Shown in pieces: positions 18,621 to 60,269 of a DNA stretch of 64,000 bases. Made by a program: the position numbers and the translations under genes. The stretch lies in contig JANOSY010000088.1 of NCBI GenBank assembly GCA_031416075.1, positions 22,376 through 86,375 of the forward strand, read 5' to 3'. The notes under the pieces were generated by a model. That model did not search any database. It had not been told where the DNA came from and saw only the letters and a list, made by a program, of their open reading frames with translations. Source of the stretch: Candidatus Tenderia sp. (GTDB taxonomy: Bacteria; Pseudomonadota; Gammaproteobacteria; Tenderiales; Tenderiaceae). Position 1 is the stretch's first letter; each line of letters begins with the position of its first letter.

Positions 18621-18837
18621 GCCAAACAGACAATGAGGCATTTAAACATGGACCGCAACCCACCCACCAACAGCGCCTGCCGGGCGTTTTGTGACATTAA
18701 GATCCTGGCCCGAATCCGCGGATCACCGCACTGACGACCACCATTGTTTCAATCTGACACGCAATAGAAGTTATCAGATGGGCGCGCGGGAAGTGCGCCA
18801 ACCGAATCAGGGAAGATCCAGACAGGAGATTACGAGG

Positions 18838-19899: not shown

Positions 19900-19904
19900 C
19901 GCTG

Positions 19905-22900
19905 ATGTCCTGCACTGTTGTAAGGGCAATCACAGCTCTCTGTCCCGGCCCACTGGCCGGGCAGCGGGCCCCCTTACACCTTTATATAACAACCCTTCTT
20001 GGATTCCTGGTACTGCTCTGGTCAACCACGACCCTGGCCGTCCCCCCTGGCACCATCATCAGCAACGTTGCCAGCATCAATTACACCATTGGCGGCCTAC
20101 CCGGTCTGCCACTCAGCTCCAACATCGATCAATTTACCGTGGTCGCCGCCGCCAATACGGTGGATGGCACCATGAGTGTGGCCGCGCCAGGCGGTAATCT
20201 ATATGCCGGTTCGCCCCGCGCCACCACCATCACCCTTAACAATACCGGCACCACCCTGCTGAACAATCAACAACTTACCATTACCGCACCGCTTAACAGC
20301 CAAGTAACACTGACCGGCAGTGGGGTCACGCTGGCCGCTTCCATGAGCAGCAGCACTACCACCACCTACATTTTTAACGTGGCAGATCTACCGGTTGCTG
20401 GCAGTCAGGACCTCCAGCTGGTACTGACCGCAGCCCCCACCGCTGTCAGCCGCCCCCAGACATTCACCGTTGCACACAGTGTTGATGGCACAACACTCCA
20501 GCAGCAATCCCTGACACTGAGCGCCTTGCCACGCACGGCGGCCAGACTGGAGATTCTGCAACACTCCCTCAGTAACAGGGCACTCTCGGCCATCGTCAAT
20601 TCCACGCTGATCCGGGGGGAGAGCGGTACCTTTACCCCCATTGCGCCGCCGACACTGCCGGAGGCACCAGACCGGCTAGTGACCGACAGCCCCATCACAC
20701 TGGAGCCTGCCAACGTATTCAGTAATATCCAGACGCTTTTTATCCGGGTCACCGATCTGGATCAAAATCTCGACAGTACGGTTCAGGAGAGTCTCGACAT
20801 CACCATCAAGCTGCCCGATCGAGACGACTATGTCACGCTGCGAATCCTCGAAACCGGCATCGCAACCGGCATCTTCAGCGGTTACGTCACCTTTGAAAAA
20901 AACAGCGCCACCAGCAGTGGCGCGCTACCGGTCAAAAGCAATTCCAAGCTGCTGGTCAGCTATACCGATACGATCGATGGTGACGACAGTGTCGCCGAGA
21001 CCGTGCTGATCGACCCCTACGGCGTGGTATTTGACAGCGCCACCGGCCAGCCACTGGATGGTTACACCGTACAGATGGTCAACACCGATACCGGCCTGCC
21101 CGCCACGGTCTATGGCGATGACGGTGTCAGCAGCTACCCCGCCACCGTGATCACCGGCAGCCCGGTGACCGACAGCAGTGGCAACCTCTACAGCTACAAT
21201 ACCGGCGAGTACCGTTTTCCACTGGCCCCAGCGGGTAATTACAGACTGGTCGTCACCTCACCCAGCAGTGCCCAGTATCGCTGGCCCTCAACCCAGTCAA
21301 CCGAACAACTCCATAACCTCTCCCGCAGCAACCTTGCCATCACCCTCGGCTCGCGGGGTGAGCGCTTCCCGCTGCTGCCAGGACCACCGCTGCATATTGA
21401 TATTCCTGTGGATCCGCTCACCACCCAGCTCTACCTCCAGCGCAGTGCCAACCGCGAGAGTGTCGCGACGGGTGACCTGATCCGCTACAGCGTCCAGGTT
21501 GAGAACAGCACCGCCACCACCCTCAACGATGTGGTGCTGACCGAGTCCCTGCCCCACGGTTTCCGCCTGGAGCCAGGCTCCATCAACATGGACAACAACC
21601 CGCAACAACCCGCCACCATTGAGCCACAAGGTACAACCTTCACCCTGAATCTCGGTGCCATGATCGCCGGTGAGCGCCGCCAGATCCGCTACGTCAGCGC
21701 CGTGGGTGCAGCACGCCAAGGACTGGCCAGCAGCAGTAGCCACGCCCGCGCCAACAGCGGTGCCGCCAACTCCAACCACGCCAGACACGATGCCATGGTG
21801 TTTGATGAGTTGATGCGTGGCCGCGCCCTGCTGCTCGGGCAGGTCATTATCAACCCCACCGACAACGACCCCACCCCCGCCAGCGGCTTAAAAGGGGTGC
21901 GTATCTATATGGAAGATGGCCGTTACGCCATCAGCGATGAACGGGGCATGTTCCATTTTGACAACCTCACCCCCGGCAACCATCTAGTACAGCTCGATAC
22001 CGCCACCCTGCCAGACCACTATTCGCTGGTGATGGGCGACCAGGACACACGCAACGCCCACAGCCCCAGCTCGCAATTTATCGACCTGCAGGGCGGCACA
22101 CTCTGGCGTACAGAGTTCCACGTTGCCCGCAAGCCCACCCCCACGGGGGCGCTATCACTGCAACTCAGCAACACCGCACCCGACAGCCAAGGCAACATCC
22201 CCTATCAGGTAACGCTGGAGAACCGGGGTGTCAGCGCCAGCAACCTGCGGTTAACACTCATGATCCCCGCCACCACCCACTACCAGCCCGGCAGCAGCCA
22301 CGTTGGCGGCCACCCCGTTGGCGATCCTGATATTGTCGGCAACGTGCTCATTTATCGCCTGAACAACGACCACCCAAGCGGTGGCTGGCAACGTCAGCTC
22401 CACCTCACCCTGCAGGGCGACACTGGCAATAGTGCCAGTGGTGACAGCCGCGAATTGACCACCAAGGCGTCACTCCAGTTTGATACCCCCGCCCAGCAGA
22501 ACCAGCGCCTGCCACTGCTGCAACATACCTTTACACTCACCACGGAACAGGTCAAACAGGGGGAACAGAAGGTCCTGGCCGAAAGCCTCACCCTCGACAA
22601 CTTCAACGGCAGCAGCAATGACCTCAGCGAGGAGCATAAAACAGTCGTGCAACAGCTGGCAGAACGCTGGGCCGGCCAGGATATCCACATCCACGCCATC
22701 GGCCACAGCGACAGCCGGGACATTATTCAGAAGGAGAAGGAGGACCAGCGCCTGTTTGCCAACAACCAGATCCTCTCTGAATATCGCGCCCATGAGGTCG
22801 CTAACCAGCTCCGCCAGCAGCTCTCCCTGCCAGCCAACCGCATCTCCTTTGAAAGCAAAGGGGAGGACGAACCTGTCGCCAGTAATGCCACATCGGCGGG

Positions 22901-25900
22901 TCGAGCGACCAACCGCCGGGTAGAGCTTCATATATATAGCGTGATCAGCACCACAACCCCACATATCCACGGTACTGCCACCACCAGTGAGCGTCTGAGC
23001 AGTACCATCACCGGCCTTACACCCGGTGAACAGCCAATAACCACCGCGACCGTTACCACAACCACGGAGTACAACAGCCAGTGGCTCGCCAGCCAGACCG
23101 CCAGTATTGAGTGGCTGCTGCCCCAGGAGCGACCCGCGCTCCCCACCACCAACATCGCCATCAAACACCACAGCGACCAGAACGTCACCCTCACCCTCAA
23201 TGGCCAGCCCGTGGCCGCCATGAACTTCAACGGCACCCTCAACAACAGCCATGGTGCTGCCGTCAGCCACTGGGCCGGGGTTGATCTGAACGAGGGCGAC
23301 AACCTCTTTCATGCCACCATCAGCAATGCCCAAGGTGAGTTTATTCAACAACTTAACCGCAACCTGCACTACTCCAGCGCCCCCGTGCGGGCAGAGATTG
23401 TGCCAACGCTCTCCACCCTCATTGCCGATAGCATCACCCCGCCGGTCATCGCCGTACGCCTGTATGACAAAGACAGCCACCCCATCCACGCCGGCATGGA
23501 GATTGAGTACCAAATCAGCCCACCGCACCAGCCCGCCCAAGAGAGTTTTAATACCGACAACATGGTTGCCGCCCCTGGCAGACGCCACTACGCCACCTCC
23601 GACAATGATGGTCTCATCCTGATCAAACTCGCCGCCACCAACAGCACCGATGATCTACGTCTGCAGCTGCCCCTGGCCCACAACCGGACCGTAGAGTTAA
23701 AGAGCCGTCTCCAGGCCAAGGCCCGCGACTGGATACTGGTGGGGCTTGCCGAAGGGGAGGCCGGTTTTAACAGCCTGAGTGGCAATATGGAGGCGCTCGA
23801 CGGCAACGCCGCCCAGGATCATCTCTACCAGGACCAACGTATCGCCTTCTTTGCCAAAGGCCAGGTGCTGGGTAAATGGCTGCTGACCCTGGCCTACGAC
23901 TCCGATAAAGCACAACCACAAAAACAGGGGAACGATCCAGCGCTGTTCCAGGCCATCGACCCCGGCAGCTACTACACCGTCTATGGTGATGCCGGTCAAA
24001 ACGGTTTTGATGCCGCCAGCAGCAAAAAGCTCTACCTCAAGCTGGAGCGCAACGCCTTCTACCTGCTCTTTGGCGACTACCAGACCCAGCTCAGCGAGAC
24101 CCGTCTGGCCCGCTACGACCGCACCCTGACCGGCATAAAGTCCCGTTATCAGAATGAACAATACAACCTCATGCTCTTTATCAGCGAAAACAGCCAATCC
24201 TTTGCCAAGGATGAGCTGCGCGGCCAGGGCAGCACCGGCCCCTACCCGCTGTCACGCAGCAACGTCGCCCTCAACAGCGAAAAGGTAGTGCTGGAGGTGC
24301 GCGACCGTTTCCGCAGCGAACAGATTGTCAGCAGCACACTGCTGGCGCGCCACAGCGACTACGACATCAACTATCTGGAGGGCAACATCACCTTCCGCGA
24401 GCCGGTATTCAGCACCGATGCCAACCTCAATCCGCAATACATCGTCATCAAATATGAGTCCTACACCGGCGACAGCCAGACCACCATCGGTGGCCGGGCC
24501 GAGGTGAAGGTCAACGACCAGCTCAAGATCGGCGTTACCCAAGTGAGTGAAGGGCGCGCTACAGGTGATGCCCTGCTCGGGGCCGCCGATCTGCAATACA
24601 AGTTCAACGATGCCACCACCCTGCGCCTTGAGACGGCCCGCAGCCTGATTGCCGACGAAGGCAGCGGCAACGCCTATCTTGCCGAAGTTGAACACCAGAC
24701 CGTCAACAGCAGTAGCAAACTCTATCTGCTGGATAACGACACCCATTTTGGTCTGGGACAAACCAACGCCAGCGAAAATGGCATGTACAAACAAGGGGTT
24801 GAGACACAGCTGCGAGCCAGCGACAATATCAACATCAAAGGCCAGCTCTACCGCCAGGAGAGCAGCCTCAGCCACGCCAGCCGTGACCTGGCCGAGGCAC
24901 AGGGCGAGATCAGCCGCGGCACTACCCGGCTGCGCGCCGGCCTGCGTGAGGTGCAGGATCAGCGCGGCGACAACAGCCAGCAGCAGTCGGAACAGCTCAC
25001 CACCGGCATCAGTCAACAGCTGCTGGACAGTAAGGTGACCCTGCGGGCCGACCGCGAGATCAACCTCAACAATGGCAATGACAGCATCGACTTCCCCGAC
25101 AAAACCCGGCTTGGGGCCGACTACCACATCACCCAGAAGATCAGCCTGTTTGCCGAACAGGAGGTGGCCAACAGCGACCTCCGCGATACCCGCCAGCGCC
25201 GTCTTGGTATCAAATCAAACCCCTGGAACGGCGCGGAGATTTACAGCGGCCTGAGCCACTCCAGCAGTGATAACGGCACTGCAACCAGCGCCAATGTCGC
25301 CGCCCGCCAGCGCTGGCAGCTCAACCCACAGTGGAGCGTTGATGCCGGTATCGAGCAGTCCCAAACCCTAAGCCAGAATCTGAACCAGAACCAAAGCAGC
25401 GGCCCAACCCTCAGCCCACCTGCCGCCACGCCGTTCAACCTCAACAGCGGATTTGCCATCGGCAGCAACGAAGATTTCAGCGCCGCCTCCTTGGGTGTCA
25501 CCTATAGCGACAAAGGGTGGCTCTGGAGCAGCCGTGTCGAGTCGCGCACCGGTGATCTGAGTGACCGTCGCCGCCTTGCCACCTCAGTACAGACATCACC
25601 ACACAACGACCTCTCCATGCTCGCCTCCCTCAACCTGCTCACCAGCAGCAGCGCCCAGGGTGAACAGCAGGATAGCTCAACGGTGCAGCTCGGGGCCGCC
25701 TACCGCCCCAGCAATAGCCGCTGGCTGCTGCTGGATAAACTGACCCTGAAAAAAGAGCGCCATAACAACAGCACCCTCGACAGCAGCGGCTGGCGCATCA
25801 TCAACCTGTTCAATGCCAATTACCGAGAAGGGCGCTGGCAGACATCGCTGCAATACGGTGCCAAGAGTGTTAAAGAGACCATCGACGGCAACGAACATAA

Positions 25901-26201
25901 CCAGTTTGTTGACCTCAGCGGCATCGAGAGCCGTTATGATCTAACGCCAGAGTGGGACATCGGCCTGCATGGCAACATCCTGCACGCCTGGCAGCTCAAC
26001 CAATATAACTACAACAGTGGTGTCTCGGTAGGCCACACCGTGGCCAAAAACATCTGGCTGAGCCTTGGCTACAACTTCAACGGCTTCCGCGACAGCGACT
26101 TTTCGCGCAGCAGCTATACCAGTCAGGGGCTGTTCCTCCGTTTCCGGATGAAATTTGACCAAACCACCGTGAAAGAGGCGATCCAGTGGGCCAGCCAATG
26201 A
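19905..26201 (+). CDS. Giant outer-membrane protein with DUF11, OmpA-like peptidoglycan-binding and C-terminal beta-barrel regions (putative anchor/assembly platform)
   Basis: Signal peptide; GHSDS...NQILSEYRA...PVASN...GRATNRRVEL OmpA motif; alternating amphipathic strands in the last ~800 aa ending GLFLRFRMKF; start uncertain. Confidence 0.8.
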   Translation: MSCTVVRAITALCPGPLAGQRAPLHLYITTLLGFLVLLWSTTTLAVPPGTIISNVASINYTIGGLPGLPLSSNIDQFTVVAAANTVDGTMSVAAPGGNLYAGSPRATTITLNNTGTTLLNNQQLTITAPLNSQVTLTGSGVTLAASMSSSTTTTYIFNVADLPVAGSQDLQLVLTAAPTAVSRPQTFTVAHSVDGTTLQQQSLTLSALPRTAARLEILQHSLSNRALSAIVNSTLIRGESGTFTPIAPPTLPEAPDRLVTDSPITLEPANVFSNIQTLFIRVTDLDQNLDSTVQESLDITIKLPDRDDYVTLRILETGIATGIFSGYVTFEKNSATSSGALPVKSNSKLLVSYTDTIDGDDSVAETVLIDPYGVVFDSATGQPLDGYTVQMVNTDTGLPATVYGDDGVSSYPATVITGSPVTDSSGNLYSYNTGEYRFPLAPAGNYRLVVTSPSSAQYRWPSTQSTEQLHNLSRSNLAITLGSRGERFPLLPGPPLHIDIPVDPLTTQLYLQRSANRESVATGDLIRYSVQVENSTATTLNDVVLTESLPHGFRLEPGSINMDNNPQQPATIEPQGTTFTLNLGAMIAGERRQIRYVSAVGAARQGLASSSSHARANSGAANSNHARHDAMVFDELMRGRALLLGQVIINPTDNDPTPASGLKGVRIYMEDGRYAISDERGMFHFDNLTPGNHLVQLDTATLPDHYSLVMGDQDTRNAHSPSSQFIDLQGGTLWRTEFHVARKPTPTGALSLQLSNTAPDSQGNIPYQVTLENRGVSASNLRLTLMIPATTHYQPGSSHVGGHPVGDPDIVGNVLIYRLNNDHPSGGWQRQLHLTLQGDTGNSASGDSRELTTKASLQFDTPAQQNQRLPLLQHTFTLTTEQVKQGEQKVLAESLTLDNFNGSSNDLSEEHKTVVQQLAERWAGQDIHIHAIGHSDSRDIIQKEKEDQRLFANNQILSEYRAHEVANQLRQQLSLPANRISFESKGEDEPVASNATSAGRATNRRVELHIYSVISTTTPHIHGTATTSERLSSTITGLTPGEQPITTATVTTTTEYNSQWLASQTASIEWLLPQERPALPTTNIAIKHHSDQNVTLTLNGQPVAAMNFNGTLNNSHGAAVSHWAGVDLNEGDNLFHATISNAQGEFIQQLNRNLHYSSAPVRAEIVPTLSTLIADSITPPVIAVRLYDKDSHPIHAGMEIEYQISPPHQPAQESFNTDNMVAAPGRRHYATSDNDGLILIKLAATNSTDDLRLQLPLAHNRTVELKSRLQAKARDWILVGLAEGEAGFNSLSGNMEALDGNAAQDHLYQDQRIAFFAKGQVLGKWLLTLAYDSDKAQPQKQGNDPALFQAIDPGSYYTVYGDAGQNGFDAASSKKLYLKLERNAFYLLFGDYQTQLSETRLARYDRTLTGIKSRYQNEQYNLMLFISENSQSFAKDELRGQGSTGPYPLSRSNVALNSEKVVLEVRDRFRSEQIVSSTLLARHSDYDINYLEGNITFREPVFSTDANLNPQYIVIKYESYTGDSQTTIGGRAEVKVNDQLKIGVTQVSEGRATGDALLGAADLQYKFNDATTLRLETARSLIADEGSGNAYLAEVEHQTVNSSSKLYLLDNDTHFGLGQTNASENGMYKQGVETQLRASDNINIKGQLYRQESSLSHASRDLAEAQGEISRGTTRLRAGLREVQDQRGDNSQQQSEQLTTGISQQLLDSKVTLRADREINLNNGNDSIDFPDKTRLGADYHITQKISLFAEQEVANSDLRDTRQRRLGIKSNPWNGAEIYSGLSHSSSDNGTATSANVAARQRWQLNPQWSVDAGIEQSQTLSQNLNQNQSSGPTLSPPAATPFNLNSGFAIGSNEDFSAASLGVTYSDKGWLWSSRVESRTGDLSDRRRLATSVQTSPHNDLSMLASLNLLTSSSAQGEQQDSSTVQLGAAYRPSNSRWLLLDKLTLKKERHNNSTLDSSGWRIINLFNANYREGRWQTSLQYGAKSVKETIDGNEHNQFVDLSGIESRYDLTPEWDIGLHGNILHAWQLNQYNYNSGVSVGHTVAKNIWLSLGYNFNGFRDSDFSRSSYTSQGLFLRFRMKFDQTTVKEAIQWASQ

Positions 26202-26220
26202 CAACCGCCACAACATCAAC

Positions 26221-29200
26221 ATGGACAGTACGATGAGATACGGACGTTTTATTCAGCTCTGCCTGCTGGCCACCCTGCTGCTGGTGGTACTTTTGCCTCG
26301 TCCAGGGGTAGCGGCCATCACCGCCACCACCCTATTTGAAGGGTCAACGGATGGCGATGCCAGCGCTTATACTGGACCCTCACTCAGCCCGTCGGCCAAC
26401 AACCTGATTCTCGTCTGGATAACCAATACCCGCTCCTCCTCCCCCACCGTGCCCACCTTTACCGGTAACGGCCTCACCTGGGTGCAGGTCGCCACCGTCA
26501 CCTGGGGCAGCAGCGGCTCCCCCACCGCACGTACCACCCTGTTCCGGGCCATGGGATCCTCCCCCGCTACCGGGATCAACAGCATCGATTTTGCCGGCAA
26601 TACCCAGACCGGCGTGGCGATGTCAATGATCCAGTTCAACAACGTCGACATCACCGGCAGCAACGGTGCCAACGCCCTGGTTCAGAGTGTCACCGGCAGA
26701 ACTGATAGCGCCTCCTCCACCGCCGGGCTGAGCCTCACCCTGGCAGCGCTGGGCAATGTTGCCAACGCCTCTGTGGGCGGCTTTTCCAACTTTATCAACT
26801 CCGCCACCTCCATCTCCCCAGGGTCCGGCTACACCGCCTCGTCCGGCACCACCTATCTGGCCCCCAGCATCAGCCTGCGCGCCGAGTGGAAGAGTGCGGG
26901 CAGCACCATCGTCAACGTCACACAGAGCGGTACCTCCCACATTGGCGGGATCGCCGTCGAACTCAAGGCCGACCTCTGTGCCGGCAATGTGGTCACCACC
27001 ATCGCCAACAGTGGTGATGGCTCCCTGCGTGAATGTATCATCAAGGCCAACCTCAACCCCGGCACCACCATCACCTTCAACATTACCGCTGCGGCCAACC
27101 AATCTTCCGGTGCCAACTCATGGTGGCGTATCACCCCCACCACCGCGCTACCCACCATCACCGCTGCCAATACGGTGATTGATGCCACCACCCAGACCAG
27201 TAATCGTGGCAATACCAATACCCTCGGCCCGGAAGTTGAACTCAACGGTGCCACCGTCGGTGCCGGGGGGTGGGACGGTTTTGGTGTGGCTTCGCCAGCC
27301 ACCGGAGTCATCATCCGCGGGTTCATCATCAATCAGTGGTCAGGGTCAGGTATCTCACTCTGGAGCGGCAGCGGCACCATCAGGGGCAACTACATCGGTA
27401 CCAACTACGCCGGTACCAGTGCCCTGGCCAATACCAGCTACGGCCTCTACCTCAATACCAATGGCAATACCGTCGGTGGCACCAGTGCTGCGGACCGTAA
27501 CGTCATTGCCGGTAACGGCGGGCCTGGCATCTACATTGTGAGCAACAGCAATACCGTGCAGGGCAACTACATCGGCGTCAACGCCAGTGCTGGGGCGATA
27601 GTTGCCAATAGTGGCCACGGCGTACAGATACTCTCCGGTGCCACCGGCAATACCATTGGGGGCACAGCGGCGGGGGCAGGCAATGTGATTGCTGGCAACG
27701 GCGCTGATGGCATCAACCATAGTTCAACAGGCAGCAATACCGTACAAGGCAACTACATCGGTACCAACGCCAGCAGCGCGACACTCTCTAATGGTGGCAA
27801 TGGCATTGCCATCTCTGCCGGCACACTCAATGTGGGCAACGCCTCTGAATCCCAATCAAACATTATTGGCCCCAACAGTGGTGCGGGCATCAACCTGGCG
27901 GGCGGAACAGTGAATCTGGCAGGCAGTGTCACCGTGCGTGGCAACATGGCCCTGGCCAGCGGCACACTCGCCATGGGCAGCGCCACACTCAACCTCTCCG
28001 GTAACTGGAGCCGTACCAGCACCACCGTCACAACCGGCACCTCCACCGTGGTGCTCAACGGCACTGCCCTGCAGAGCCTGACCATGAACGGCAGTAACTT
28101 CAATAATCTGACCATCACCAACGGCAGTGTTGCAGGTATCAGTTTTAATGATGGTTTTAACGCCGCCAACATCACCAATACCACCCCCGCCTCCCGGCTG
28201 ACCTTTAAGGCGGGCGCAACCTACACCCTCTCCGGCACCCTGACACTGGTCGGCAGCAGTGGCAACCAGATCATTCTGCTCAGCGACTCCCCCGGCACCC
28301 GCTTTACCCTGAACCCAACTGCTGGCGCGCAGAGTGTCAACTATGTCAACGTCAAGGATTCACAGGCCTCAACCAACAACATCACCGCCGATAACTCCAC
28401 CAACAGTGGTGGCAATGATGATGCCGAGGCCGCACCACGCTGGGTCTTTAATGCCCCCGATACCACGCCGCCCGCCAGGATCATCGACCTGACGGTCACC
28501 TCCTCCACCACCTCATCCATCACCCTGAACTGGACTTCACCGGGAGATGACAATAACAGTGGCACGGCTACCAGCTATGACCTGCGTTACTCCACCTCGC
28601 CCATCACGGCGGGCAACTGGGCCAGCGCCACACAGGCCGTTGGCGAACCAACACCCTTGGTGGCCGGTAGCAGCCAATCATTTAGCGTGACCGGCCTGGC
28701 CGCTGCCACCACCTACTACTTTGTAATGACCACCAGCGATGAGGTCCCCAATACCTCCGCCCTATCTGACTCAGCGGTTGGCACCACCGGCGGCGGTGGT
28801 GGCGGCAATGTGAGCTACTACGCCAAACGCAGTAACAGTGTCTCCATCGCCTCCGGCATCACCAGCAACAGCGGCTCCTGCGGCACAGATCCAACCGCCT
28901 ACTACATTGAAGAGCTGTCAAAAAACATCAGCGACATGTGTGTCACAGCAAATGCCTACCGCTGGGAGCAGTTGACGGCCGGCAGCTACTCGGACCACTA
29001 CTTCAACACCGCCTATGTGGCCAATACCACCGTTACCGGCGTCTCTTATCAGGTCACCATCCGCGACAGCGGAACAGTAGGTTTCCAGCTTTTTTATGTC
29101 ACCTCCGGCGGTACCAAAACCTATCTTGGCACTGAAGTCACCCAGGTAAACAGTGGCATAGAAACCAATAACTACATCCTTAACCTCTCCGGCCAGTCTG

Positions 29201-31839
29201 GCACCATCCCCACCGGGGCAAAACTTGGGTTTCGTACCCGTGGTATCTCTGTCAGCCCCAGCTTCAGGATCTATGTGGGTAATCTGGATGGCAGGACACC
29301 CAGCAACCTCTCCGGTCATCTAATCGTCAACGAGGCCGTGGGCAGCAGCGATACCACCGCCCCGGCCAGTGTCACGCTCTCTACCGGTACCATCACCAAC
29401 AACTCCGTGCTGCTGAACTGGGTATCACCGGGGGATGATGGCAATACCGGCACCGCCCAGATCTACGACATCCGTTACTCCACCGCCGCCATCACGGCGG
29501 GCAACTGGGCCAGCGCCACCCAGGTAGGCGGGGAACCAACACCTCTGGTGGCGGGCACTGCCCAGACCTATACCGTGACCGGGCTGGCCCCCAATACCCT
29601 CTACTACTTTGCCATCAAAACCGGCGACGAGACACCCAACTGGTCAGCGGTCTCCAACTCCCCCAGCGCCACCACCTACGATCCACCGGTGGGTGGCTTT
29701 AGTGTCGATAATGTGATCCCCGCCACCCAGATCAGCCAGTCCACCAACGGTTCAGGCATCATCACCATCAACTGGAAGGGGCGCGACAATCAGGCCAATA
29801 ACGTCACACTCAAAACCTTTCAGTACAGCGTGGACGGTGGGGCTAGCTGGAACGCCCCCACCAACGGCGACGCCTCCGCCGCACTCTCCGCCACCTGGAG
29901 CAACAACGGCGGCAGTGGCTGGACCACCGCCACCACCTTGGCTGCCGCTCCTGTCAACAGCTTCACCTTCAATACCAAACATGCCAATGTCTCGGGGTTA
30001 AACGGGGTGGACCAGAACGATGTACGGGTCCGGTTTCTATTACGTGATGCCACTATGGATAGCCAGAGCTATGTCACCTCGACCGATTTTCGTATCGATG
30101 CCCTTGCCCCTACCGCGACCATTGGCAGCGCCATTTACGATGCTGCCAACGACCTGCTGACCATCACCGGCACCAACTTCACCACCATTGCGGCGGCCAG
30201 CACCGACATCAAAGCCTATGTCGACTGGAGCAAATTTGTCTGGGACATCAACGGCGACAACGCCACCACCACCGACATCAGCTTTGTGCTGGGTGACATC
30301 ACCAGCCTGATCATCACCGACGATACCACCATCACCCTGCAGTTCAGTGCCGCCAAAGGGATCGCCATCGAAGCCACCGCCGGCTACAGCACCACAGGCG
30401 GGGTCGACACCCTCGATGTTGCCGCCGGTTTTGCCCGAGACGACTACGGCAATGCCGCCACCACCGATGCGGTGGCCAACGGGCCACTCGTTACCACCTC
30501 GGTCTCAGGGATACTCTACGATACCGACCGCACCACCAGCCTCGGTTTTGGCATGACGGTACGGCTACTCATCAACGGCGCCAGCATGGGCTCCACCACC
30601 ACCGACGGCAGTGGTCGCTATACCTTCTGGAATAACGTCAGTGCCGGCAATGCCATTCTGGTCTACATCGACAATGGTGCCAGCACCGCCATCAGCGCCA
30701 CCGTTACCGCCAACGCCAGCCTCTCGGACTTTGATCTCTACGCCAGCCATCTGGTGGCCCGCCACGATAATGGGGGCGCACTCAGCAACGCCAACCTGGG
30801 AAGTGCCAAGGGGGCGTATGTCGACACCGATATTGTTTACTCCGTCACCGGCAGCGCGTTAACCGTCAGTGGCAGCGCCACCCGGCTACACATCCCGGCG
30901 GGCAAAAGTTTTACCCCGGAGGGCAACGTCACCACCCCGGCCATGAGTAATCTTGGCACCTTTGTCGGCGGCAGTGGTGCCATTACCATCAATGGCAACC
31001 TGAGTAACAGCGGCAGTTATACCGCCAGCAGCGCCACCACCACTGTTGCTGCTGACTTCAGCAACAGCGGTACCTTTACAGCCGCAGGCGGTACCGTGCT
31101 GCTTAACGGTATCAATCAAAACATCACGGGGACCACTACCTTCTTCAACCTGACCAAAACCGTGGCCACCGCCGACACCCTATTTTTCAGCGTCGGCTCC
31201 ACCACCACCGTCACGGGTAGCGCCACCCTGCAGGGGGCATCGGGCCAGCCACTGAGTCTGCTCTCGATCACCCCCGGCAGCCGCTGGAACTTCAACATCG
31301 GCAGCAGCGCCACTAAGTCCTTCAGTTTTCTGAATGTGATCGACAGTGACGCCTCAGGCTCTGCCGCTGCCAAAAAACCGCTCATCGCCCAACCCAGCAA
31401 CTCTACCGACAGCGGCAACAATGTGGACTGGTTTGGCCTGCCCTCCATCTCGGTGATCAAATCCAGTACCCTGATATCCGACCCCGTTAACGGCACCACC
31501 AGCCCGCTGCATATCCCGGGGGCAATCCTTAACTATCAGATCCTCACCACCAACTCTGGCAACGGCTCACCCGATACCAATACCGTGGTGGTAACCGATG
31601 CACTGGACTCCAGCAAGCTTGAGTTTGATGTCACCACCGGCATCACCTTTACCGCCAATACCTCGGGACTGACACTGGGCACAGTGAGTTATGCCCATAC
31701 CGCCACCCCCACCACCTATACCTACACCCCCACCGGCCCCTACGACGCCAATGTGGCGGGCATCAAGATCACCACCAGCGGTACGTTTGCCAGCGCCGGT
31801 GCCAGCTTTACCCTCAACTTCCGCGTCCGCATAAAATAG
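26221..31839 (+). CDS. Large secreted adhesin (CSLREA-like motif, beta-helix repeats, two FN3 domains, C-terminal DUF11-like domain); putative fimbrial tip
   Basis: Signal peptide; DGSLRECI; GNYIGTN/GNVIAGNG repeats; FN3 LNW.SPGDD...YYF; C-terminal SVIK...HIPGA domain. Confidence 0.8.
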   Translation: MDSTMRYGRFIQLCLLATLLLVVLLPRPGVAAITATTLFEGSTDGDASAYTGPSLSPSANNLILVWITNTRSSSPTVPTFTGNGLTWVQVATVTWGSSGSPTARTTLFRAMGSSPATGINSIDFAGNTQTGVAMSMIQFNNVDITGSNGANALVQSVTGRTDSASSTAGLSLTLAALGNVANASVGGFSNFINSATSISPGSGYTASSGTTYLAPSISLRAEWKSAGSTIVNVTQSGTSHIGGIAVELKADLCAGNVVTTIANSGDGSLRECIIKANLNPGTTITFNITAAANQSSGANSWWRITPTTALPTITAANTVIDATTQTSNRGNTNTLGPEVELNGATVGAGGWDGFGVASPATGVIIRGFIINQWSGSGISLWSGSGTIRGNYIGTNYAGTSALANTSYGLYLNTNGNTVGGTSAADRNVIAGNGGPGIYIVSNSNTVQGNYIGVNASAGAIVANSGHGVQILSGATGNTIGGTAAGAGNVIAGNGADGINHSSTGSNTVQGNYIGTNASSATLSNGGNGIAISAGTLNVGNASESQSNIIGPNSGAGINLAGGTVNLAGSVTVRGNMALASGTLAMGSATLNLSGNWSRTSTTVTTGTSTVVLNGTALQSLTMNGSNFNNLTITNGSVAGISFNDGFNAANITNTTPASRLTFKAGATYTLSGTLTLVGSSGNQIILLSDSPGTRFTLNPTAGAQSVNYVNVKDSQASTNNITADNSTNSGGNDDAEAAPRWVFNAPDTTPPARIIDLTVTSSTTSSITLNWTSPGDDNNSGTATSYDLRYSTSPITAGNWASATQAVGEPTPLVAGSSQSFSVTGLAAATTYYFVMTTSDEVPNTSALSDSAVGTTGGGGGGNVSYYAKRSNSVSIASGITSNSGSCGTDPTAYYIEELSKNISDMCVTANAYRWEQLTAGSYSDHYFNTAYVANTTVTGVSYQVTIRDSGTVGFQLFYVTSGGTKTYLGTEVTQVNSGIETNNYILNLSGQSGTIPTGAKLGFRTRGISVSPSFRIYVGNLDGRTPSNLSGHLIVNEAVGSSDTTAPASVTLSTGTITNNSVLLNWVSPGDDGNTGTAQIYDIRYSTAAITAGNWASATQVGGEPTPLVAGTAQTYTVTGLAPNTLYYFAIKTGDETPNWSAVSNSPSATTYDPPVGGFSVDNVIPATQISQSTNGSGIITINWKGRDNQANNVTLKTFQYSVDGGASWNAPTNGDASAALSATWSNNGGSGWTTATTLAAAPVNSFTFNTKHANVSGLNGVDQNDVRVRFLLRDATMDSQSYVTSTDFRIDALAPTATIGSAIYDAANDLLTITGTNFTTIAAASTDIKAYVDWSKFVWDINGDNATTTDISFVLGDITSLIITDDTTITLQFSAAKGIAIEATAGYSTTGGVDTLDVAAGFARDDYGNAATTDAVANGPLVTTSVSGILYDTDRTTSLGFGMTVRLLINGASMGSTTTDGSGRYTFWNNVSAGNAILVYIDNGASTAISATVTANASLSDFDLYASHLVARHDNGGALSNANLGSAKGAYVDTDIVYSVTGSALTVSGSATRLHIPAGKSFTPEGNVTTPAMSNLGTFVGGSGAITINGNLSNSGSYTASSATTTVAADFSNSGTFTAAGGTVLLNGINQNITGTTTFFNLTKTVATADTLFFSVGSTTTVTGSATLQGASGQPLSLLSITPGSRWNFNIGSSATKSFSFLNVIDSDASGSAAAKKPLIAQPSNSTDSGNNVDWFGLPSISVIKSSTLISDPVNGTTSPLHIPGAILNYQILTTNSGNGSPDTNTVVVTDALDSSKLEFDVTTGITFTANTSGLTLGTVSYAHTATPTTYTYTPTGPYDANVAGIKITTSGTFASAGASFTLNFRVRIK
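28459..29680 (+). repeat. Two near-identical FN3 modules (about 28459-28790 and 29350-29680)
   Basis: Shared YST..ITAGNWASATQ.GEPTPLVAG and DNA identity CCATCACGGCGGGCAACTGGGCCAGCGCCAC. Confidence 0.8.
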
Positions 31840-34186: not shown

Positions 34187-34573
34187 ATGAACAAGATTAT
34201 TGCCACGGCTGTACTACTCATCATCCTTACGGGCTGCAGCCAAATGCCCACCACCACACATACCGGTGGCCAGATCAACCACGTTGTGCTGATCTGGCTC
34301 AAAGATGCCGGAAACCCAGAGCAGCGTCACCAGATTATCGAAGCAACCCGCACACTGGAACAGCTACCTGGCATTATCTCTGTGCATGTTGGCGCGGTCA
34401 TACCCAGTGACCGCAAAGTTGTGGATGATAGCTTTGACATCGGCGTGCATATGCTCTTCAGCGACCGTCAGAGCATGGAACATTATGGTAACCATCCCGA
34501 ACATCAACGCATTCTCAACCAGATTGTCATGCCACTGACAGAGCGCATACTCATTTATGACTTTGCACAATGA
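34187..34573 (+). CDS. Dabb-family (stress-responsive A/B barrel) lipoprotein
   Basis: AAGGAGG SD, lipobox LTGC, HVVLIWLK...Y..HPEH...IYDF. Confidence 0.8.
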   Translation: MNKIIATAVLLIILTGCSQMPTTTHTGGQINHVVLIWLKDAGNPEQRHQIIEATRTLEQLPGIISVHVGAVIPSDRKVVDDSFDIGVHMLFSDRQSMEHYGNHPEHQRILNQIVMPLTERILIYDFAQ

Positions 34574-35132
34574 TCTGACAAACCCCCATCACCATAGTAA
34601 CAATATCAACAACATGCCCTCCGCTTGTTACCGTTAATAGTTAATATAAAAACCACTTTAAAATATGGCTTTTATAATTAATGAGTATTTCAAACCACTA
34701 CGACAAATAAAATAAATTTTATAAATCATAAATACCGCAAAACAATTACCCATCACACCTGTGAAACCTCACTCAAATACCTTTATTTAACACCTGTTTT
34801 TTTCAATTAAAACAAGAACATTAATGCACTTTTATTGTTTATTTATAACGCTAAAACAACATAAATAACCATATTAAAAAAGACTTTATTAATACCCATA
34901 TATGAAAAAAATATCACTCAACACAAACTCAATATGTTTAGCACAAAATAACTTAATGAAAATTTAAGTTTTACGGTGTAGGATAAATTTCACCCTCAGC
35001 GACATAACCAGTTATTTCTTGGAATGTTGCACTCTCGGGATCACGAGAAGAGCAGAGGGGGGAGTACTGATATTTGAATGGTTCAAATATTAGAGGACTA
35101 TGATTTAAATCACATTTACTAAGGAGATTATT

Positions 35133-35255
35133 ATGGGTGGCGGCGGCGGTATGGGCGGTGGCGGTATGGGCGGTGGCGGCGGCGGTGGTATGGGCGGCGG
35201 CGGCGGTGGCGGCATGGGCGGCGGTGGCGGCGGTGGCGGTGGCGGCGGTATGTAG
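35133..35255 (+). CDS. 40-aa Gly/Met-only micro-ORF (M-G5-M-G4-M-G7-M-G7-M-G11-M)
   Basis: TAAGGAG SD just upstream of ATG; only ATG/GGC/GGT codons up to TAG; paralog at 35668. Confidence 0.6.
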   Translation: MGGGGGMGGGGMGGGGGGGMGGGGGGGMGGGGGGGGGGGM

Positions 35256-35332
35256 CTCCCGGCTCACTATGCACCCTCTCTCTCATGTGAGGGGCTCATA
35301 GCACAGTTGTAATGGCATATTGCCATGCGATG

Positions 35333-35364
35333 AAATGGGGGGGCATTATGTCCCCCTATTTTTT
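35333..35364 (+). terminator. Intrinsic terminator after micro-ORF 1
   Basis: GGGGGGGCA-TTA-TGTCCCCCT hairpin followed by T-run. Confidence 0.75.
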
Positions 35365-35667
35365 ATGCCAAAAAACAACACCTACCCCCTATCCTCGCCC
35401 TCCATATCCCGTGTGCTCAATAGCTTAATTACACACAAAAAATAAATCATTTTTCCTGTGCGGAATATATTTTCTATTTCCCAACAAATTTAAGGGAAGG
35501 TTAACATACCCGATGTAGTATCGATAACACCTTAAACGTTGTGCCTGCTTTTTGGCTTAACGACTTCTCTGAAACTATGACGAGATAATAAGGCAGTACC
35601 GGTCTTTGAGTTATCAACGACCCAATATAAATATCAATTACTTTTAAATAAAACTAAGGAGTTAATC

Positions 35668-35736
35668 ATGGGTGGAATGAACGGTGGTCGTGGTGGTATG
35701 GGTGGCGGCGGTGGCGGTGGTGGCGGCGGCATGTAA
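35668..35736 (+). CDS. 22-aa Gly/Met-rich micro-ORF (MGGMNGGRGGM-G10-M)
   Basis: TAAGGAG SD, ATGGGTGG start identical to paralog, ends ATG-TAA. Confidence 0.6.
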   Translation: MGGMNGGRGGMGGGGGGGGGGM

Positions 35737-35809
35737 TATGCCCGCGTCACGCACTCCCTCTCACTATTGAGAGGCATGTTGCGTACCGCTATGGCTAACG
35801 CCATACAAT

Positions 35810-35844
35810 AAAAATGGGAGGGCATGTCTGCCTCCCATTTTTTT
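35810..35844. terminator. Intrinsic, probably bidirectional terminator between micro-ORF 2 and the ABC gene
   Basis: AAAAATGGGAGGGCA-TGTC-TGCCTCCCATTTTTTT. Confidence 0.8.
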
Positions 35845-35928
35845 CGTCAATAATTCCCTGGCCTACGCCATTACTCGATACTCAAATAACCCACCGCCTT
35901 ACCCTTCATCTCTCAAAAATTTCTTTTA

Positions 35929-37704
35929 TTATGCCTCGTTATCAGACTGCCACAGCACTGAAACCTTATATTCTGGATGGGATATATAGAGTTCATCATG
36001 TGTACCTACTGTAATTGAGCCATTGCCATTAAAATAGAAGACTCTGTCGGCATTGCGAATAGACGAATAACGATGGGCGATAACAAAAGTCGTGCGACCT
36101 GTACGTAATGTATCCAGGGCAGCCACTACCTCTTTCTCTGATTGGCTATCCAATGCTGAAGTTGCCTCATCCATAATTAAAAATGGAGCATCCATTAACA
36201 TCGCCTGTGCAATTGCAATACGTTGATACTGTCCACCTGATAGCTCAACACCGCCGGATCCTACGCGAGTATCAAGCCCATCACTCAACGCTGTAATAAA
36301 TTGCCATGCGCCACTCACTTCACAGGCGTGTACCATCTGCGACTCAGTGGCATCCGGCTTCACTAATAGTAAGTTGGTGCGAATCGTATCGTGCATGATG
36401 AACGGGGTTTGCCAAATGATTGAGAATTGCTCACGTAATGAGGCGATAGTTACAGTGCGAATATCCACCCCATCAATTGTAATACGGCCTTGCTGAGGGT
36501 CATGAAAACGCATCAGCAGCCGGGCAAGTGTTGATTTTCCAGCACCGCTTGCTCCAACCAGGGCGACTGTTTCTCCGGCGCGCACTTCAAGATTGACACC
36601 TTGTAAGAGCAGCTCCCCTCCCGTGTAGGCAAAATCTACACTCTCAAAACGAATACCTCCCTCAGTCACAACTAATGGCTCTGCATCAACAATATCCTGG
36701 GTCTCAGGTTTTAGATCAAATATCGCCAAAACACGCTGCGCAGCCCCAAAATCACCTTGTAACTGCATTGGTGCTTGTGCAAACCCACGCACCGGCACCG
36801 AGAGATACCCCAAGTAGAGTAGGAAACTGACCATCGCCCCTATACCAAAACCGTGACTCTCTATCCGATCGATCCCGACGAACACTATCACGATCCCACA
36901 AAAATAGATCATGGCCGCCAGTGTGACCGTGAACCCTTGGTCCAACCAGCGCATCTTCATGCCCCAGTAACGTGCCTGTTCGTAACACTCACCATGCCTA
37001 GCCGCCATGCGTGTCTCGCCCCGGACTGAGCTTATGCCACGCAGATTGCTTAAGACCTGTTCTTCAAAGGCTAATAGTTTGCCCGCTTCATGAAAAAATC
37101 GTTGCGATGCCTTACGCTTGCGCGGGCCGAATAACCCCTGATGTATGACAAACAGTGGCACAAACATTAACGCCACCAGGGCCATATACCAATCGATCCA
37201 AAACAACATGCCACAATAAAAAAATAGGGTTAACAGGTGAGAAACAAGAAAGAAGGGGACTTCGAGTACCATGTTCTGCACACTGTCCACATCACTGCTA
37301 AGGCGGGCAAGCACGTCCCCCTTCTGTAGATGTGCAGCACCGGGCGCAGAGACATCAAACAGATGACGCAGGGCAGCTTGACGCAGCCGCCCCACAAAAC
37401 GAAGCCCCAACCAGTTAGCCATCAGGGTGGAGGAGAAGTGAAATCCCTGGTTGATGACAACAACCAGTATCAACCAGAGCAGCACCGATTTAACCTGATC
37501 AAAACGCCCGGCCTGTAAGTGGTCAAACGGTAACCCTATCAGCCAGACCATGGCGGTATTGGTCACGGTTAACCCTACAATAGTCCCTATGACCAAACTG
37601 ACAAACACCACATCGGCACGTGCGTATGGCAAAAAATGGCGGAAGACTTGCCAGAATTGGGACCTTTGCACGACAGTTTCGCCCTGCTGAGGGGTATCAC
37701 TCAT
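35929..37704 (-). CDS. ABC exporter, fused TMD+NBD (MsbA/multidrug-like)
   Basis: Six-TM N-terminus, GASGAGKST Walker A, LSGGQ, MDEATSALD; overlaps the AsnB-like gene by 4 nt. Confidence 0.93.
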   Translation of the reverse strand: MSDTPQQGETVVQRSQFWQVFRHFLPYARADVVFVSLVIGTIVGLTVTNTAMVWLIGLPFDHLQAGRFDQVKSVLLWLILVVVINQGFHFSSTLMANWLGLRFVGRLRQAALRHLFDVSAPGAAHLQKGDVLARLSSDVDSVQNMVLEVPFFLVSHLLTLFFYCGMLFWIDWYMALVALMFVPLFVIHQGLFGPRKRKASQRFFHEAGKLLAFEEQVLSNLRGISSVRGETRMAARHGECYEQARYWGMKMRWLDQGFTVTLAAMIYFCGIVIVFVGIDRIESHGFGIGAMVSFLLYLGYLSVPVRGFAQAPMQLQGDFGAAQRVLAIFDLKPETQDIVDAEPLVVTEGGIRFESVDFAYTGGELLLQGVNLEVRAGETVALVGASGAGKSTLARLLMRFHDPQQGRITIDGVDIRTVTIASLREQFSIIWQTPFIMHDTIRTNLLLVKPDATESQMVHACEVSGAWQFITALSDGLDTRVGSGGVELSGGQYQRIAIAQAMLMDAPFLIMDEATSALDSQSEKEVVAALDTLRTGRTTFVIAHRYSSIRNADRVFYFNGNGSITVGTHDELYISHPEYKVSVLWQSDNEA

Positions 37705-39719
37705 ATGTGTGAATCAGTAAAACAGCGCGCCGTTTTGTTGATAAACAGGTCGTACAGAATCTGCACCGTCAGGATCGAAAACAGCACCCACTCCTGCCTC
37801 ATTGCCCGGTAATAGGCATTGCCATCAGGGGGTGTGGGCAGGTTCACCAACTCATCCAACAGCGCAGTCACCACTTGAGGATTAAAGATGCCCGCCTGTT
37901 GAATCTTCTCTTCAGAGAGAAATTGCGACAACCGGTCTGCATTTTTTGGCGTAAAAAACCATTCACGAATAGGGGTGTAAAAGGCACGTTTTTTATACGA
38001 AGTGGGATGTTCTGGTAACTTTGGCAACATTAACTTACGCAAAATATACTTCTCATCCAGGCCATTCAGCTTGAGTGCTGGTGGCACCTTTGCCGCTAAC
38101 TCCACCAGTTTGTGATCCAGAAATGGGACCCGCGCCTCCACACCGTTAGCCATGGCCAGTCGATCTGCCCGCCACAATATCCAACCTGGCAGACGGGTCT
38201 TTATCTCCAGATACAGGGACTGGTTGAGTGGATGCAACCCTTCCAGCCTGGGCTTTAAGGTGGTGATCAACTCTGCCATCTGCTGATCGTGGTCGGCGGA
38301 CTGCTCCAGAAAATCATCGCTGAAGATCCCTTCACTCCCTTCACGAAGGATTTGCCAGAAGTCATACCAGACGGGATAACAACCAAATTGCGCCACCACC
38401 TTCTGCTGCTGCTGCGACTCATGTAAACGAGCCAGCATCTGCAGATAATCAGGGGCAAAATCATTGCCAAAATCATCTAAATAGTAACGCAGCCGCTCCT
38501 CCTGCCCCCCCTTCTCATTACCCCACTGACGGATGTAATCCTGGCGGAAGCAGTCATACCCCCCCAATATTTCATCTGCACCTTCACCGGTATACACCAC
38601 TTTAAACTGATTTTTACGCACCAGCTCCGACAACATCAGCAGCGGGATATCCAGCGCCATACGTTGTGGCTGCTCGACGCTGTACATCGCCTCCACCAAC
38701 ACATCCAGATAATCATCACTGCGCTGGTCATCCATATACAGGTCATGCAGCTCAACACCGATGTGGTCGGCAATACTGCTAGTAATTGGATACTCGTCAT
38801 TAGCACTATTGGAAAAGCGGATAGTAAATGCCTTTACACTCTGCTCCGCAGACTGCTGCAACCAATAGGTGGTAGTGGCCGAGTCAACACCGCCGGAAAG
38901 ATAGGAGCCAATAGGTACCTCGCCAATCATGTGTGAGCGCACAGCGTCCTGCAAAACACCATCAAACTCTGCCAACCACTGCTCTTCACTGCGATCCTCA
39001 TACTCACCCTCTCGGGGAAACTCCAGATCCCAATAACAGTCAATTTGCGGCTGCTTACCTGCCACCAGTGTCATGGTATGGCCGGGGGCCAACTCAACCA
39101 CCCCGGCAAAGAGCGTATGTGGCGCAATATTAAATTGATAGGAGAAAAAATTCCGTACCGATTGGGGATTAAAGGCGGGAGTGATCTGCCCCGATGCAAA
39201 CAGCGATTTCACTTCTGAGGCACCATACAGGGTCGTGCCGTCCCAATGGTAAACCAGCGGTTTGATACCCAACCGGTCCCTGGCCACAAATAGTTCGTTA
39301 GTTAATGAGTCATGAATAGCAAACGCAAACATTCCCCGCAGGCGCGGCACACACTGCGCGCCATCGCGCTGGAACAGATGGAGAATCACCTCCGTATCCG
39401 ATTGCGTCTGAAACAGAACGCCCTCCTGCTCCAGTTCAGCCCGCAACACCTTGTAATTATAGATTTCACCGTTATAAACAATGGCATAACGATCATCAAT
39501 GCTTAACATCGGCTGGGCACCGCCACGAATATCAACGATACTCAAACGGGTATGGCCTAACGCCACACCACCACGCACCAAATGGTTCTGTGCATCGGGT
39601 CCCCGATGTATCAGCGCATGCACCATGCGCCCTATTATTAATTCACTCGACTCACTCTGCGCCAACGGCTCAGCGGATTGATGATGGCCAGCACGATAGA
39701 TGAAACAGATCCCACACAT
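37701..39719 (-). CDS. Asparagine synthase (glutamine-hydrolysing)-family amidotransferase
   Basis: N-terminal MCGI, HRGPD, NGEIYN, RDRLGIKPL, LSGGVDS, GEGADE, EARVPFLD. Confidence 0.9.
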   Translation of the reverse strand: MCGICFIYRAGHHQSAEPLAQSESSELIIGRMVHALIHRGPDAQNHLVRGGVALGHTRLSIVDIRGGAQPMLSIDDRYAIVYNGEIYNYKVLRAELEQEGVLFQTQSDTEVILHLFQRDGAQCVPRLRGMFAFAIHDSLTNELFVARDRLGIKPLVYHWDGTTLYGASEVKSLFASGQITPAFNPQSVRNFFSYQFNIAPHTLFAGVVELAPGHTMTLVAGKQPQIDCYWDLEFPREGEYEDRSEEQWLAEFDGVLQDAVRSHMIGEVPIGSYLSGGVDSATTTYWLQQSAEQSVKAFTIRFSNSANDEYPITSSIADHIGVELHDLYMDDQRSDDYLDVLVEAMYSVEQPQRMALDIPLLMLSELVRKNQFKVVYTGEGADEILGGYDCFRQDYIRQWGNEKGGQEERLRYYLDDFGNDFAPDYLQMLARLHESQQQQKVVAQFGCYPVWYDFWQILREGSEGIFSDDFLEQSADHDQQMAELITTLKPRLEGLHPLNQSLYLEIKTRLPGWILWRADRLAMANGVEARVPFLDHKLVELAAKVPPALKLNGLDEKYILRKLMLPKLPEHPTSYKKRAFYTPIREWFFTPKNADRLSQFLSEEKIQQAGIFNPQVVTALLDELVNLPTPPDGNAYYRAMRQEWVLFSILTVQILYDLFINKTARCFTDSHI

Positions 39720-60220: not shown

Positions 60221-60269
60221 AAATGGCTACAACAACTTACAGACTACACGTATCAGGCTCAAGATATGA

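Follow-up and report, generated by a model that had tools for sequence, protein, structure and literature searches.

The window analysed here is a 64,000-nucleotide stretch of a Candidatus Tenderia sp. genome (assembly GCA_031416075.1, contig JANOSY010000088.1, positions 22,376 to 86,375, forward strand), and it carries two very small genes, A1 and A2, whose products consist almost wholly of glycine and methionine. On the opposite strand lie the genes of an MsbA-type ATP-binding cassette (ABC) exporter, part C, and of an AsnB-like glutamine amidotransferase, part B; a fused MFS/spermidine-synthase-like protein, part D, is encoded on another contig of the same genome (Table 1). These micro-open reading frames (micro-ORFs) apparently belong to a peptide-exporter system, often with B and D as two modifying enzymes. 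A first-pass annotation, made from the sequence without database searches, had described the two genes as standing alone, which holds in that they are whole genes without a leader and not tails of larger proteins; their partners C and B, however, lie nearby and D lies on the other contig, and the convergent exporter and the next AsnB-like gene, both overlooked, belong to the same system. Genomes and loci are numbered G and L below, G000 being the window genome.

Table 1. Features of the A1/A2 locus and its partner genes (window positions, except for part D)
Feature	Position	Strand	Remarks
Possible -10 element, unit 1	34979..34984	+	TAGGAT, ~150 nt before the start codon; putative, aligned with like hexamers of genus copies
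Shine-Dalgarno of A1	35120..35126	+	TAAGGAG, 6 nt before ATG
Peptide gene A1	35133..35255	+	40 aa, Gly34 Met6, Met at C-terminus
3' untranslated region, unit 1	35256..35366	+	Two hairpins and intrinsic terminator (35337-35356 plus T run)
Possible -10 element, unit 2	35516..35521	+	TAGTAT, spacing as in unit 1; putative, from the same alignment
Shine-Dalgarno of A2	35655..35661	+	TAAGGAG, 6 nt before ATG
Peptide gene A2	35668..35736	+	22 aa, Gly/Met apart from a single Asn and a single Arg, Met at C-terminus
3' untranslated region, unit 2	35737..35844	+	Two hairpins and intrinsic terminator (about 35810-35844)
Part C, MsbA-type ABC exporter	35929..37704	-	591 aa, Pfam ABC_membrane and ABC_tran, no peptidase domain; gene convergent with A1 and A2
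Part B, AsnB-like glutamine amidotransferase	37701..39719	-	Distinct subfamily; overlaps exporter start by 4 nt
Part D, fused MFS/spermidine-synthase-like protein	G000:C9:23198-26284	-	~1030 aa; outside the window, other contig of the same genome

Two Gly/Met peptide genes and their transcription units

A1 uses 22 GGC, 12 GGT and 6 ATG codons and stops at TAG, and A2 encodes MGGMNGGRGGM-G10-M, its last Met followed by TAA. Translation bore out the composition, coordinates and Met-stop endings given in the first-pass annotation, and the TTTAAAT and Shine-Dalgarno (SD) sequences it placed before both starts are present. The orthologue of A1 in G001 has 43 aa; A2 has orthologues in G001, G004 and G003, the last interrupted at a contig end. 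Scanning the whole genome in six frames gave 74,403 Met-started segments of 10-150 aa, of which 11 contained at least 45% Gly, and A1 and A2 were the only stand-alone, SD-led Gly/Met genes among them, the others being the GroEL tail, the tail of a secreted protein, and segments that were internal or had no clear SD. Dinucleotide shuffles of the intergenic region yielded a comparable ORF in 0 of 300 cases. The ORFs are indeed GC-rich islands (79% and 65%), while the surrounding DNA, called very AT-rich, is so only in the upstream flank (30% GC), since the values are 40% between the genes and 46% after them. Pfam and NCBIfam hold no family for either peptide.

The suggestion that the genes sit in duplicated transcription units is supported, with the duplication running from the -10-like hexamer through a 3' untranslated region (UTR) with three hairpins, the last being the terminator. 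The two 3' UTRs fold with z-scores of -3.4 and -5.5, and across eight genus copies two-sided changes occur in 10 of 31 pairs, a count matched by none of 500 shuffles, for a structure model derived from the same eight sequences. The ORF itself folds no better than shuffles (z=-1.0). When the 5' UTRs of seven copies from the genus were aligned, no more than two weak helices emerged (-4.5 kcal/mol), and no riboswitch is claimed; Rfam returned no family in the window region (four weak chance matches) or in 12 related loci. A promoter scan of the region found three sites vs 4.6 expected, so the promoters of the units are not established, and the hexamer of unit 1 was not picked up as a full sigma-70 promoter. 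Upstream of the 59 homologous ORFs described below, sigma-54, FNR and CRP motifs numbered 3, 0 and 0, respectively. Each gene may stand as a separate unit that is translated at a high level and closes with a structured 3' UTR and terminator, the strong expression being a prediction.

A short ORF rich in two residues and followed by hairpins and a terminator might instead be a cis-acting leader peptide that senses Gly- or Met-tRNA shortage and controls the terminator, and at two loci (L028 and L030) the B gene follows the micro-ORF on the same strand 70-120 nt later. The hairpins, however, lie wholly after the stop codon, peptide length varies threefold, the constant partner is a peptide exporter, and in the window and at most loci the terminator faces a convergent gene and leaves nothing downstream to control. 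The Gly/Met translation sensor offered by the first-pass annotation is disfavoured because most copies end in such a terminator, and with no regulated same-strand gene after the terminator in the window or at most loci the attenuator leader peptide, which we regard as very improbable, was rejected.

Homologues and partner genes

Homologous micro-ORFs are present in G001 (two), G002 (two), G004, G003 (truncated where the contig ends), G008 and G013. In all, 206 loci were filtered to 61 distinct candidates, from which L122 (a poly-G run containing N) and L256 (an Asp/Arg variant, as became clear afterwards) were dropped to leave 59. All 59 peptides begin with Met-Gly, none contains Asp, Glu, Lys, His or an aromatic residue, and 46 end in Met (45 in GGM). 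They are 18-68 aa long (median 37) and consist of 73% Gly and 17% Met, with Met pairs mostly 2-5 Gly apart; variants carry in-frame Ala/Pro inserts, Gln or Arg. A leader or follower recognition sequence is absent, given the uniform start and the low complexity throughout, and a short non-Gly N-terminus occurs in two Asp/Arg variants and one Pro-rich variant.

Frame-breaking lengths or a missing SD were looked for in the homologues, and of the internal ATGs 334 proved to be in frame and two out of frame, with GGAG 6-10 nt before the ATG in 60 of the 61 candidates. The stop codons are TAA, TAG and TGA in 51, 7 and 1 cases, respectively, and the variation between GGC and GGT, first read as a sign of coding in the window, recurs as synonymous Gly codons across the 59 homologues. 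Because SD, frame, stop and synonymous Gly codons are conserved over this set, selection appears to act on the peptide and not on a DNA repeat, and the micro-ORFs are, judging by their sequences, real peptide-coding genes. A non-coding RNA, microsatellite or assembly artefact could resemble an ORF of this kind, given the low-complexity GGC/GGT repeats, the conserved RNA structure 3' of the ORF and the several assemblies that break within the Gly/Met repeat, but the frame, SD distance, stop and in-frame Ala, Pro, Gln and Arg inserts are kept across 59 copies, the ORF shows neither excess folding nor an Rfam family, and such an origin is scarcely credible.

The first-pass annotation had proposed searching other genomes for SD-led Gly/Met ORFs and scoring their neighbours, and this recovered both the homologues and three recurring partners, C, B and D. 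An SD-led pattern search of 401 genomes matched 17, of which 11 were dropped (GroEL tails in four, tracts in larger proteins in five, one non-Gly ORF and one N-broken poly-G run) and six held true micro-ORFs. A C-terminal pattern search found nothing in G003, G161, G245 and G147, and the genome of L029 was left out of the micro-ORF search.

The most constant partner is C. A profile built from 26 relatives (threshold E <= 1e-150) placed the C subfamily in 11 of 400 class genomes, and all 11 also have a Gly-rich micro-ORF. It is of the Gly/Met type in G000, G003 (truncated at a contig end), G064 (interrupted by an N), G272, G296, G327, G417 and G161, of an Arg-rich type in G008, and Asp/Arg-rich and directly after the exporter in G018 and G245. 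Five of the six pattern-search genomes are among these 11; in the sixth, G286, pieces of the exporter lie at contig ends, and one of them adjoins the micro-ORF. C together with the peptide is the core of the system, and B and D are widespread accessories. By Pfam, C contains only ABC_membrane and ABC_tran, from residue 38 on, and it scores below every named NCBIfam exporter cut-off (e.g. MsbA, 355 vs 602). A peptidase-containing bacteriocin exporter was rejected, there being no C39 peptidase domain and no double-glycine leader. The micro-ORFs that follow the exporter in G018 and G245 (L299:8511 and L300:3601, both on the minus strand) encode Gly/Asp/Arg-rich peptides of 50 aa with a short hydrophobic N-terminus and represent a second peptide type.

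Part B combines Pfam GATase_7 and Asn_synthase domains (TIGR01536, 436 vs a cut-off of 267) and keeps the MCG start with its N-terminal Cys, the SGGxDS motif and the Glu/Tyr pair of the synthetase site. The N-terminal Cys of the glutaminase domain is found in 18 of 18 aligned B proteins, 16 directly and two from an upstream GTG. An invariant EQPQR replaces a segment of E. coli AsnB that we take to bind aspartate, and for this reason and for its PRK09431 score (286 vs 499) B was rejected as a housekeeping asparagine synthetase B. Subfamily members are 51-86% identical to the window protein and ordinary homologues near 33%; the best fold match of the B model (pLDDT 80) is the hydroxyamidotransferase TsnB9 (TM-score 0.72). 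At E <= 1e-150 there are 289 homologues of B, annotated as asparagine synthase, and some of these may be ordinary homologues. The closest named records come from an uncultured Chromatiaceae bacterium and Candidatus Tenderia sp., and two B-subfamily proteins labelled Kaarinaea lacus (cyanobacterium; P0091 and P0093) were not counted towards the range, a co-cultured contaminant, possibly itself a carrier, being likely.

B occurs in 7 of the 400 class genomes, from five families, all within the 11 genomes with C; it adjoins C only in this genus and yet is no late addition to the system. A micro-ORF was found at 5 of 11 B-subfamily loci vs 0 of 69 loci of ordinary AsnB homologues; the genomes of five of the six remaining B loci were searched, and all five have SD-led Gly/Met ORFs elsewhere. 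The micro-ORF lies directly upstream of B in L028, L030, L161-L164 and L167. Where B is present, Met is the last residue of the peptides in 15 of 16 genomes (the exception being G327) vs one of six without a B hit (G286), and in the other five it is Arg, Asp or Pro. The tally was made post hoc on related genomes, and four of the six without a B hit are fragmented.

Part D passes the NCBIfam NF037959 (fused MFS/spermidine synthase) cut-off at 135 vs 40 bits. Its model (pLDDT 87) has an MFS fold in residues 1-426 (Z=29.0, rmsd 3.6, 369 aligned) and an aminopropyltransferase fold in residues 452-763 (Z=26.8, rmsd 2.9, 282 aligned), followed by a helical tail that the whole-model fold search barely tested. 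There are 13 hydrophobic segments and a positive-inside distribution of Lys/Arg, which place the catalytic domain probably outside the cytoplasm, facing the periplasm. Aspartates 101, 170 and 173 of T. maritima SpeE, whose presumed roles underlie our reading, align to G542, Q610 and H613 of D, and these residues are conserved in the subfamily. With the aspartates replaced by Gly, Gln and His, D was rejected as a true aminopropyltransferase SpeE; the replacements argue against polyamine synthesis and allow S-adenosylmethionine (SAM) with a base-free acceptor such as a thioether. The subfamily is longer than typical, with 47-70% identity among members and about 27% to typical NF037959 members. 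ESM Atlas returned only spermidine-synthase-family clusters for D, a phylum sample of 301 genomes held, outside the window genome, only distant MFS/spermidine-synthase genes, and 20 plasmid records matched a D search, those listed at <29% identity. No substrate of the fused family turned up in the literature searched.

Strong D hits occur in 8 of the 400 class genomes, all within the 11 with C, and B and D occur together in six. At metagenome loci of D, a micro-ORF was present in 33 of 77 (28 of the 58 that have 1 kb or more of upstream sequence) vs 0 of 18 distant MFS/spermidine-synthase loci; many micro-ORFs are divergent from the D gene, and D loci with a micro-ORF fall in all four main branches of a quick D tree. 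One branch free of micro-ORFs (L185, L188, L189, L194, L195, L199, L203, L208, L224, L225, L229 and L236) lies beside unknown lipoproteins and what we take to be transaldolase-like and other sugar-pathway genes. Behind D, 15 of 107 loci (including L143, L144, L147, L180, L267 and L270) carry uspA and an operon resembling that of alternative complex III, with genes for a cytochrome c, a molybdopterin protein, an Fe-S protein and NrfD. All four parts stand in one locus at 5 of 80 metagenome loci (L161, L162, L163, L164 and L167). The co-occurrence has hypergeometric P values between 1e-11 and 1e-14 when counted by genome and of 9e-10 when counted by family. Carriers belong to at least six families, mostly uncultured Gammaproteobacteria known from metagenomes, no carrier in culture having come to light, and the window genome has RuBisCO and alternative complex III matches.

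Proposed pathway and purpose

We consider it reasonably probable that the leaderless ribosomal peptides are the cargo of a dedicated exporter, C, and the substrates of two optional tailoring enzymes, B and D. A precursor of a modified peptide was among the roles first offered for A1 and A2, and the exporter and the two co-occurring enzyme subfamilies back it. Each micro-gene would be expressed as a separate, highly translated unit, and Met1 would then be removed to leave an N-terminal Gly, as Met aminopeptidase does before this residue. B would adenylate the carboxylate of the C-terminal Met and amidate it with ammonia from glutamine, this Met being the presumed target because the C-terminus holds the sole carboxylate of a Gly/Met peptide; head-to-tail ring closure or nitrile formation would be alternatives at this step. 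C would move the peptide across the inner membrane, the association with the peptide being observed and the transport predicted. Last and most speculatively, D, in which a 13th helix links an MFS transporter to a spermidine-synthase fold, might supply SAM outside the cytoplasm and transfer a methyl or aminoalkyl group to the exported peptide, for which the Met sulfur or the new amide would be the simplest target.

Some loci carry further genes that fit the logic of tailoring, with oxygenase, SEC-C protein and formyltransferase genes added in G161, G272 and G042. A 2-oxoglutarate-Fe(II) oxygenase with a SEC-C motif and an unknown SEC-C protein stand beside micro-ORFs or exporter paralogues at L267:10985-13973, L301:9800-12007 and L111:333-1537. 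The formyltransferase gene was seen in G161, whose peptide has a Pro-rich tail, a possible target for hydroxylation.

Several observations weigh against this pathway. Four of the 11 C genomes have no B hit and three have no strong D hit, G327 has two copies of B yet peptides ending in Ala and Gly, 44 of the 77 D loci have no micro-ORF nearby (including one well-supported branch of 14), and D of the window genome is on another contig, beside rnf genes. The P values are overstated because the genomes are kin. Since the exporter is MsbA-like, its cargo might also be lipid-linked or otherwise not a peptide.

That B and D are missing from some carriers, and that the same genomes carry Gly/Met tracts on secreted proteins and split multicopper oxidases, would suit an unmodified peptide exported by C, with B and D serving a related envelope task on lipid or on the tracts of larger proteins. 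This seems unlikely in view of the seven loci with B directly behind the micro-ORF, the many with D directly in front, the tracking of C-terminal Met with B and the extra oxygenase and formyltransferase genes beside some variants. B might also act as a ligase and not an amidase, closing the peptide head to tail, building a Gly/Met polymer or coupling it to an amine-bearing lipid flipped by C: once Met is removed, the invariant Met-Gly start would leave the Gly amine free, the AsnB homologues include lasso cyclases and beta-lactam synthetases, and C resembles MsbA. The glutaminase domain with its N-terminal Cys is nevertheless kept in every aligned B protein and the lasso cyclase model NF033535 gives B 200 bits vs a cut-off of 525, which leaves a ligase improbable.

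The purpose of the product is the weakest part of this reading, and the structural and metal/redox roles also offered by the first-pass annotation are candidates for it. Our best, still tentative, guess is an extracytoplasmic polyglycine-II scaffold that displays Met sulfur and binds a soft metal such as Cu(I). The Met spacing of 2-5 Gly resembles copper-binding Met motifs, but copper genes are near the system at only 6-7 of 107 loci. Gly/Met chains favour polyproline II with Met exposed (PMC12571646, in part), and the micropeptides, by analogy, likely adopt a polyproline-II/polyglycine-II conformation with Met outward. A structural coat is possible and rated slightly lower, an oxidant sink is decidedly doubtful, and a signal or antagonist is conceivable. 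D may add charge to the peptide, as weakly suggested by the Arg- or Asp/Arg-rich peptides of G008, G013 and G018, which have no strong D hit; set against this, the peptides are neutral in G286 and G296, where no strong D hit occurs, and an Asp/Arg peptide accompanies D in G245. In a bolder and rather improbable extension, the leaderless Gly/Met polymer would be capped by B and exported by C, D would export SAM through its MFS domain and its periplasmic domain would alkylate Met sulfur to give a regularly charged sulfonium polymer; the Arg- and Asp/Arg-rich variants would be encoded mimics, and secreted proteins and multicopper oxidases would bear their GGM tracts as tags for this machinery.

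Other genes were seen around the system. Split two-gene multicopper oxidases whose second subunit has Gly/Met tracts lie near the system at 6-7 of 107 loci, as at L028:4605-6920, L161:123-2198, L303:1922-4111 and L268:8466-10687; the window genome has no match to the first subunit, and a Crp-family regulator stands beside B at seven loci. A secreted Cys-containing family with three Gly/Met tracts and a Gly/Met tail (G000:C37:5659-6507, plus strand; relatives at L018:3464-4483, L007:1129-2130 and L123:924-1898) has no Pfam or NCBIfam hit and no usable ESM Atlas hit. Its gene adjoins the exporter in G008, and the last residue of its tail is Met in the window genome and Arg in G013 and G069, which parallels the micropeptide type of G013. 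In the window, a Dabb-domain lipoprotein gene (34187-34573, plus strand) lies upstream of the peptide genes and is not conserved beside them in relatives. A cluster at 18778-31839 (plus strand) encodes very large secreted proteins, one of 2098 aa with DUF11 and OmpA domains and one of 1872 aa with fibronectin III domains, and is probably a surface or adhesin system, and genes at 55380-63794 (minus strand), downstream of a large repetitive protein, are presumably for type I secretion (outer-membrane, HlyD-like and ABC components).

Comparison with known systems

With a peptide, tailoring enzymes and an exporter, the gene set resembles a RiPP (peptide made by ribosomes and post-translationally modified) or microcin cluster and may be regarded as a putative RiPP system. 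A ribosomal precursor peptide gene is indicated by the conservation of SD, frame and stop over 59 homologues, and candidate modifying enzymes are genetically linked to it, B and D by adjacency and by co-occurrence relative to controls. AsnB-like enzymes that act on a peptide C-terminus are known from RiPP clusters (thiostrepton TsrC, ScdTA, nitrilobacillin PesC), with TsrC and ScdTA named as C-terminal amidases and PesC adenylating and amidating the C-terminus without need of a leader in vitro (PMC13060819, in part). AsnO of N-acetylglutaminylglutamine amide is a further comparison. As in these clusters, small peptide genes, often two, stand beside an AsnB-like enzyme with an intact glutaminase domain and a transporter, and the C-terminal carboxylate is a plausible acceptor; by this analogy B would amidate the C-terminal Met. 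The present system differs in having no leader, protease or other class-defining enzyme, a Gly/Met chain of free length, D as a partner and B as an optional one. The Figure S23 network in the same paper, with about 300 uncharacterised AsnB-like RiPP candidates, could include B (PMC13060819, in part).

Lasso clusters such as that of microcin J25 share a peptide, an AsnB homologue and a peptidase-free ABC exporter, and an N-terminal Gly after processing. They require an Asp/Glu acceptor at core position 7-9, present in none of the 59 peptides, and differ too in their leader and in that B keeps its glutaminase domain; with no Asp/Glu, no leader and the cyclase cut-off missed, a lasso peptide cluster was rejected. 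No recurring candidate for the lasso leader peptidase B2 or the RRE B1 appeared among the neighbour clusters of 107 loci, about 45 neighbours having been scanned with Pfam.

In composition and GGM ending the peptides resemble the Gly/Met C-terminal tail of GroEL (polyproline II), as the first-pass annotation had remarked; here the Gly/Met tract makes up the entire gene product, has an exporter to itself and is not a tail or, as in scallop abductin, which it also resembles, an animal structural protein (PMC12571646, in part). Small Met-rich products outside the cytoplasm, a location that is here predicted, include SilE and PcoE, which are Met-rich metal sponges. MrpX of Azospira suillum is a periplasmic Met-rich scavenger of HOCl recycled by YedY (PMC4436054, in part). 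Unlike these proteins the micropeptides have no signal peptide, and no conserved yedY/msrP, sigma factor or cop/sil genes were among the recurring neighbours; an oxidant sink like MrpX is weakened because its reductase is not among them. D shares both folds with the NF037959 family and differs as a longer subfamily tied to Gly/Met micro-ORFs.

A literature search, which covered few subscription papers and no supplements, found neither the gene set nor stand-alone Gly/Met micro-genes described, and the system is apparently undescribed, a variant on the peptide-enzyme-exporter theme. Two unannotated low-complexity ORFs have become a defined, testable system in at least six families, and the whole gene class has so far been invisible because gene callers miss such genes and low-complexity filters mask them. 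The peptides are a candidate substrate for two orphan enzyme groups, the AsnB-like subfamily of B and the fused MFS/spermidine-synthase proteins of D, the latter being widespread and their predicted periplasmic SAM chemistry lacking an explanation. If the sulfonium polymer were true, it would give the first substrate found for the fused family, and if B amidates, a leader-independent C-terminal amidase for a GGM tag would be a useful tool.

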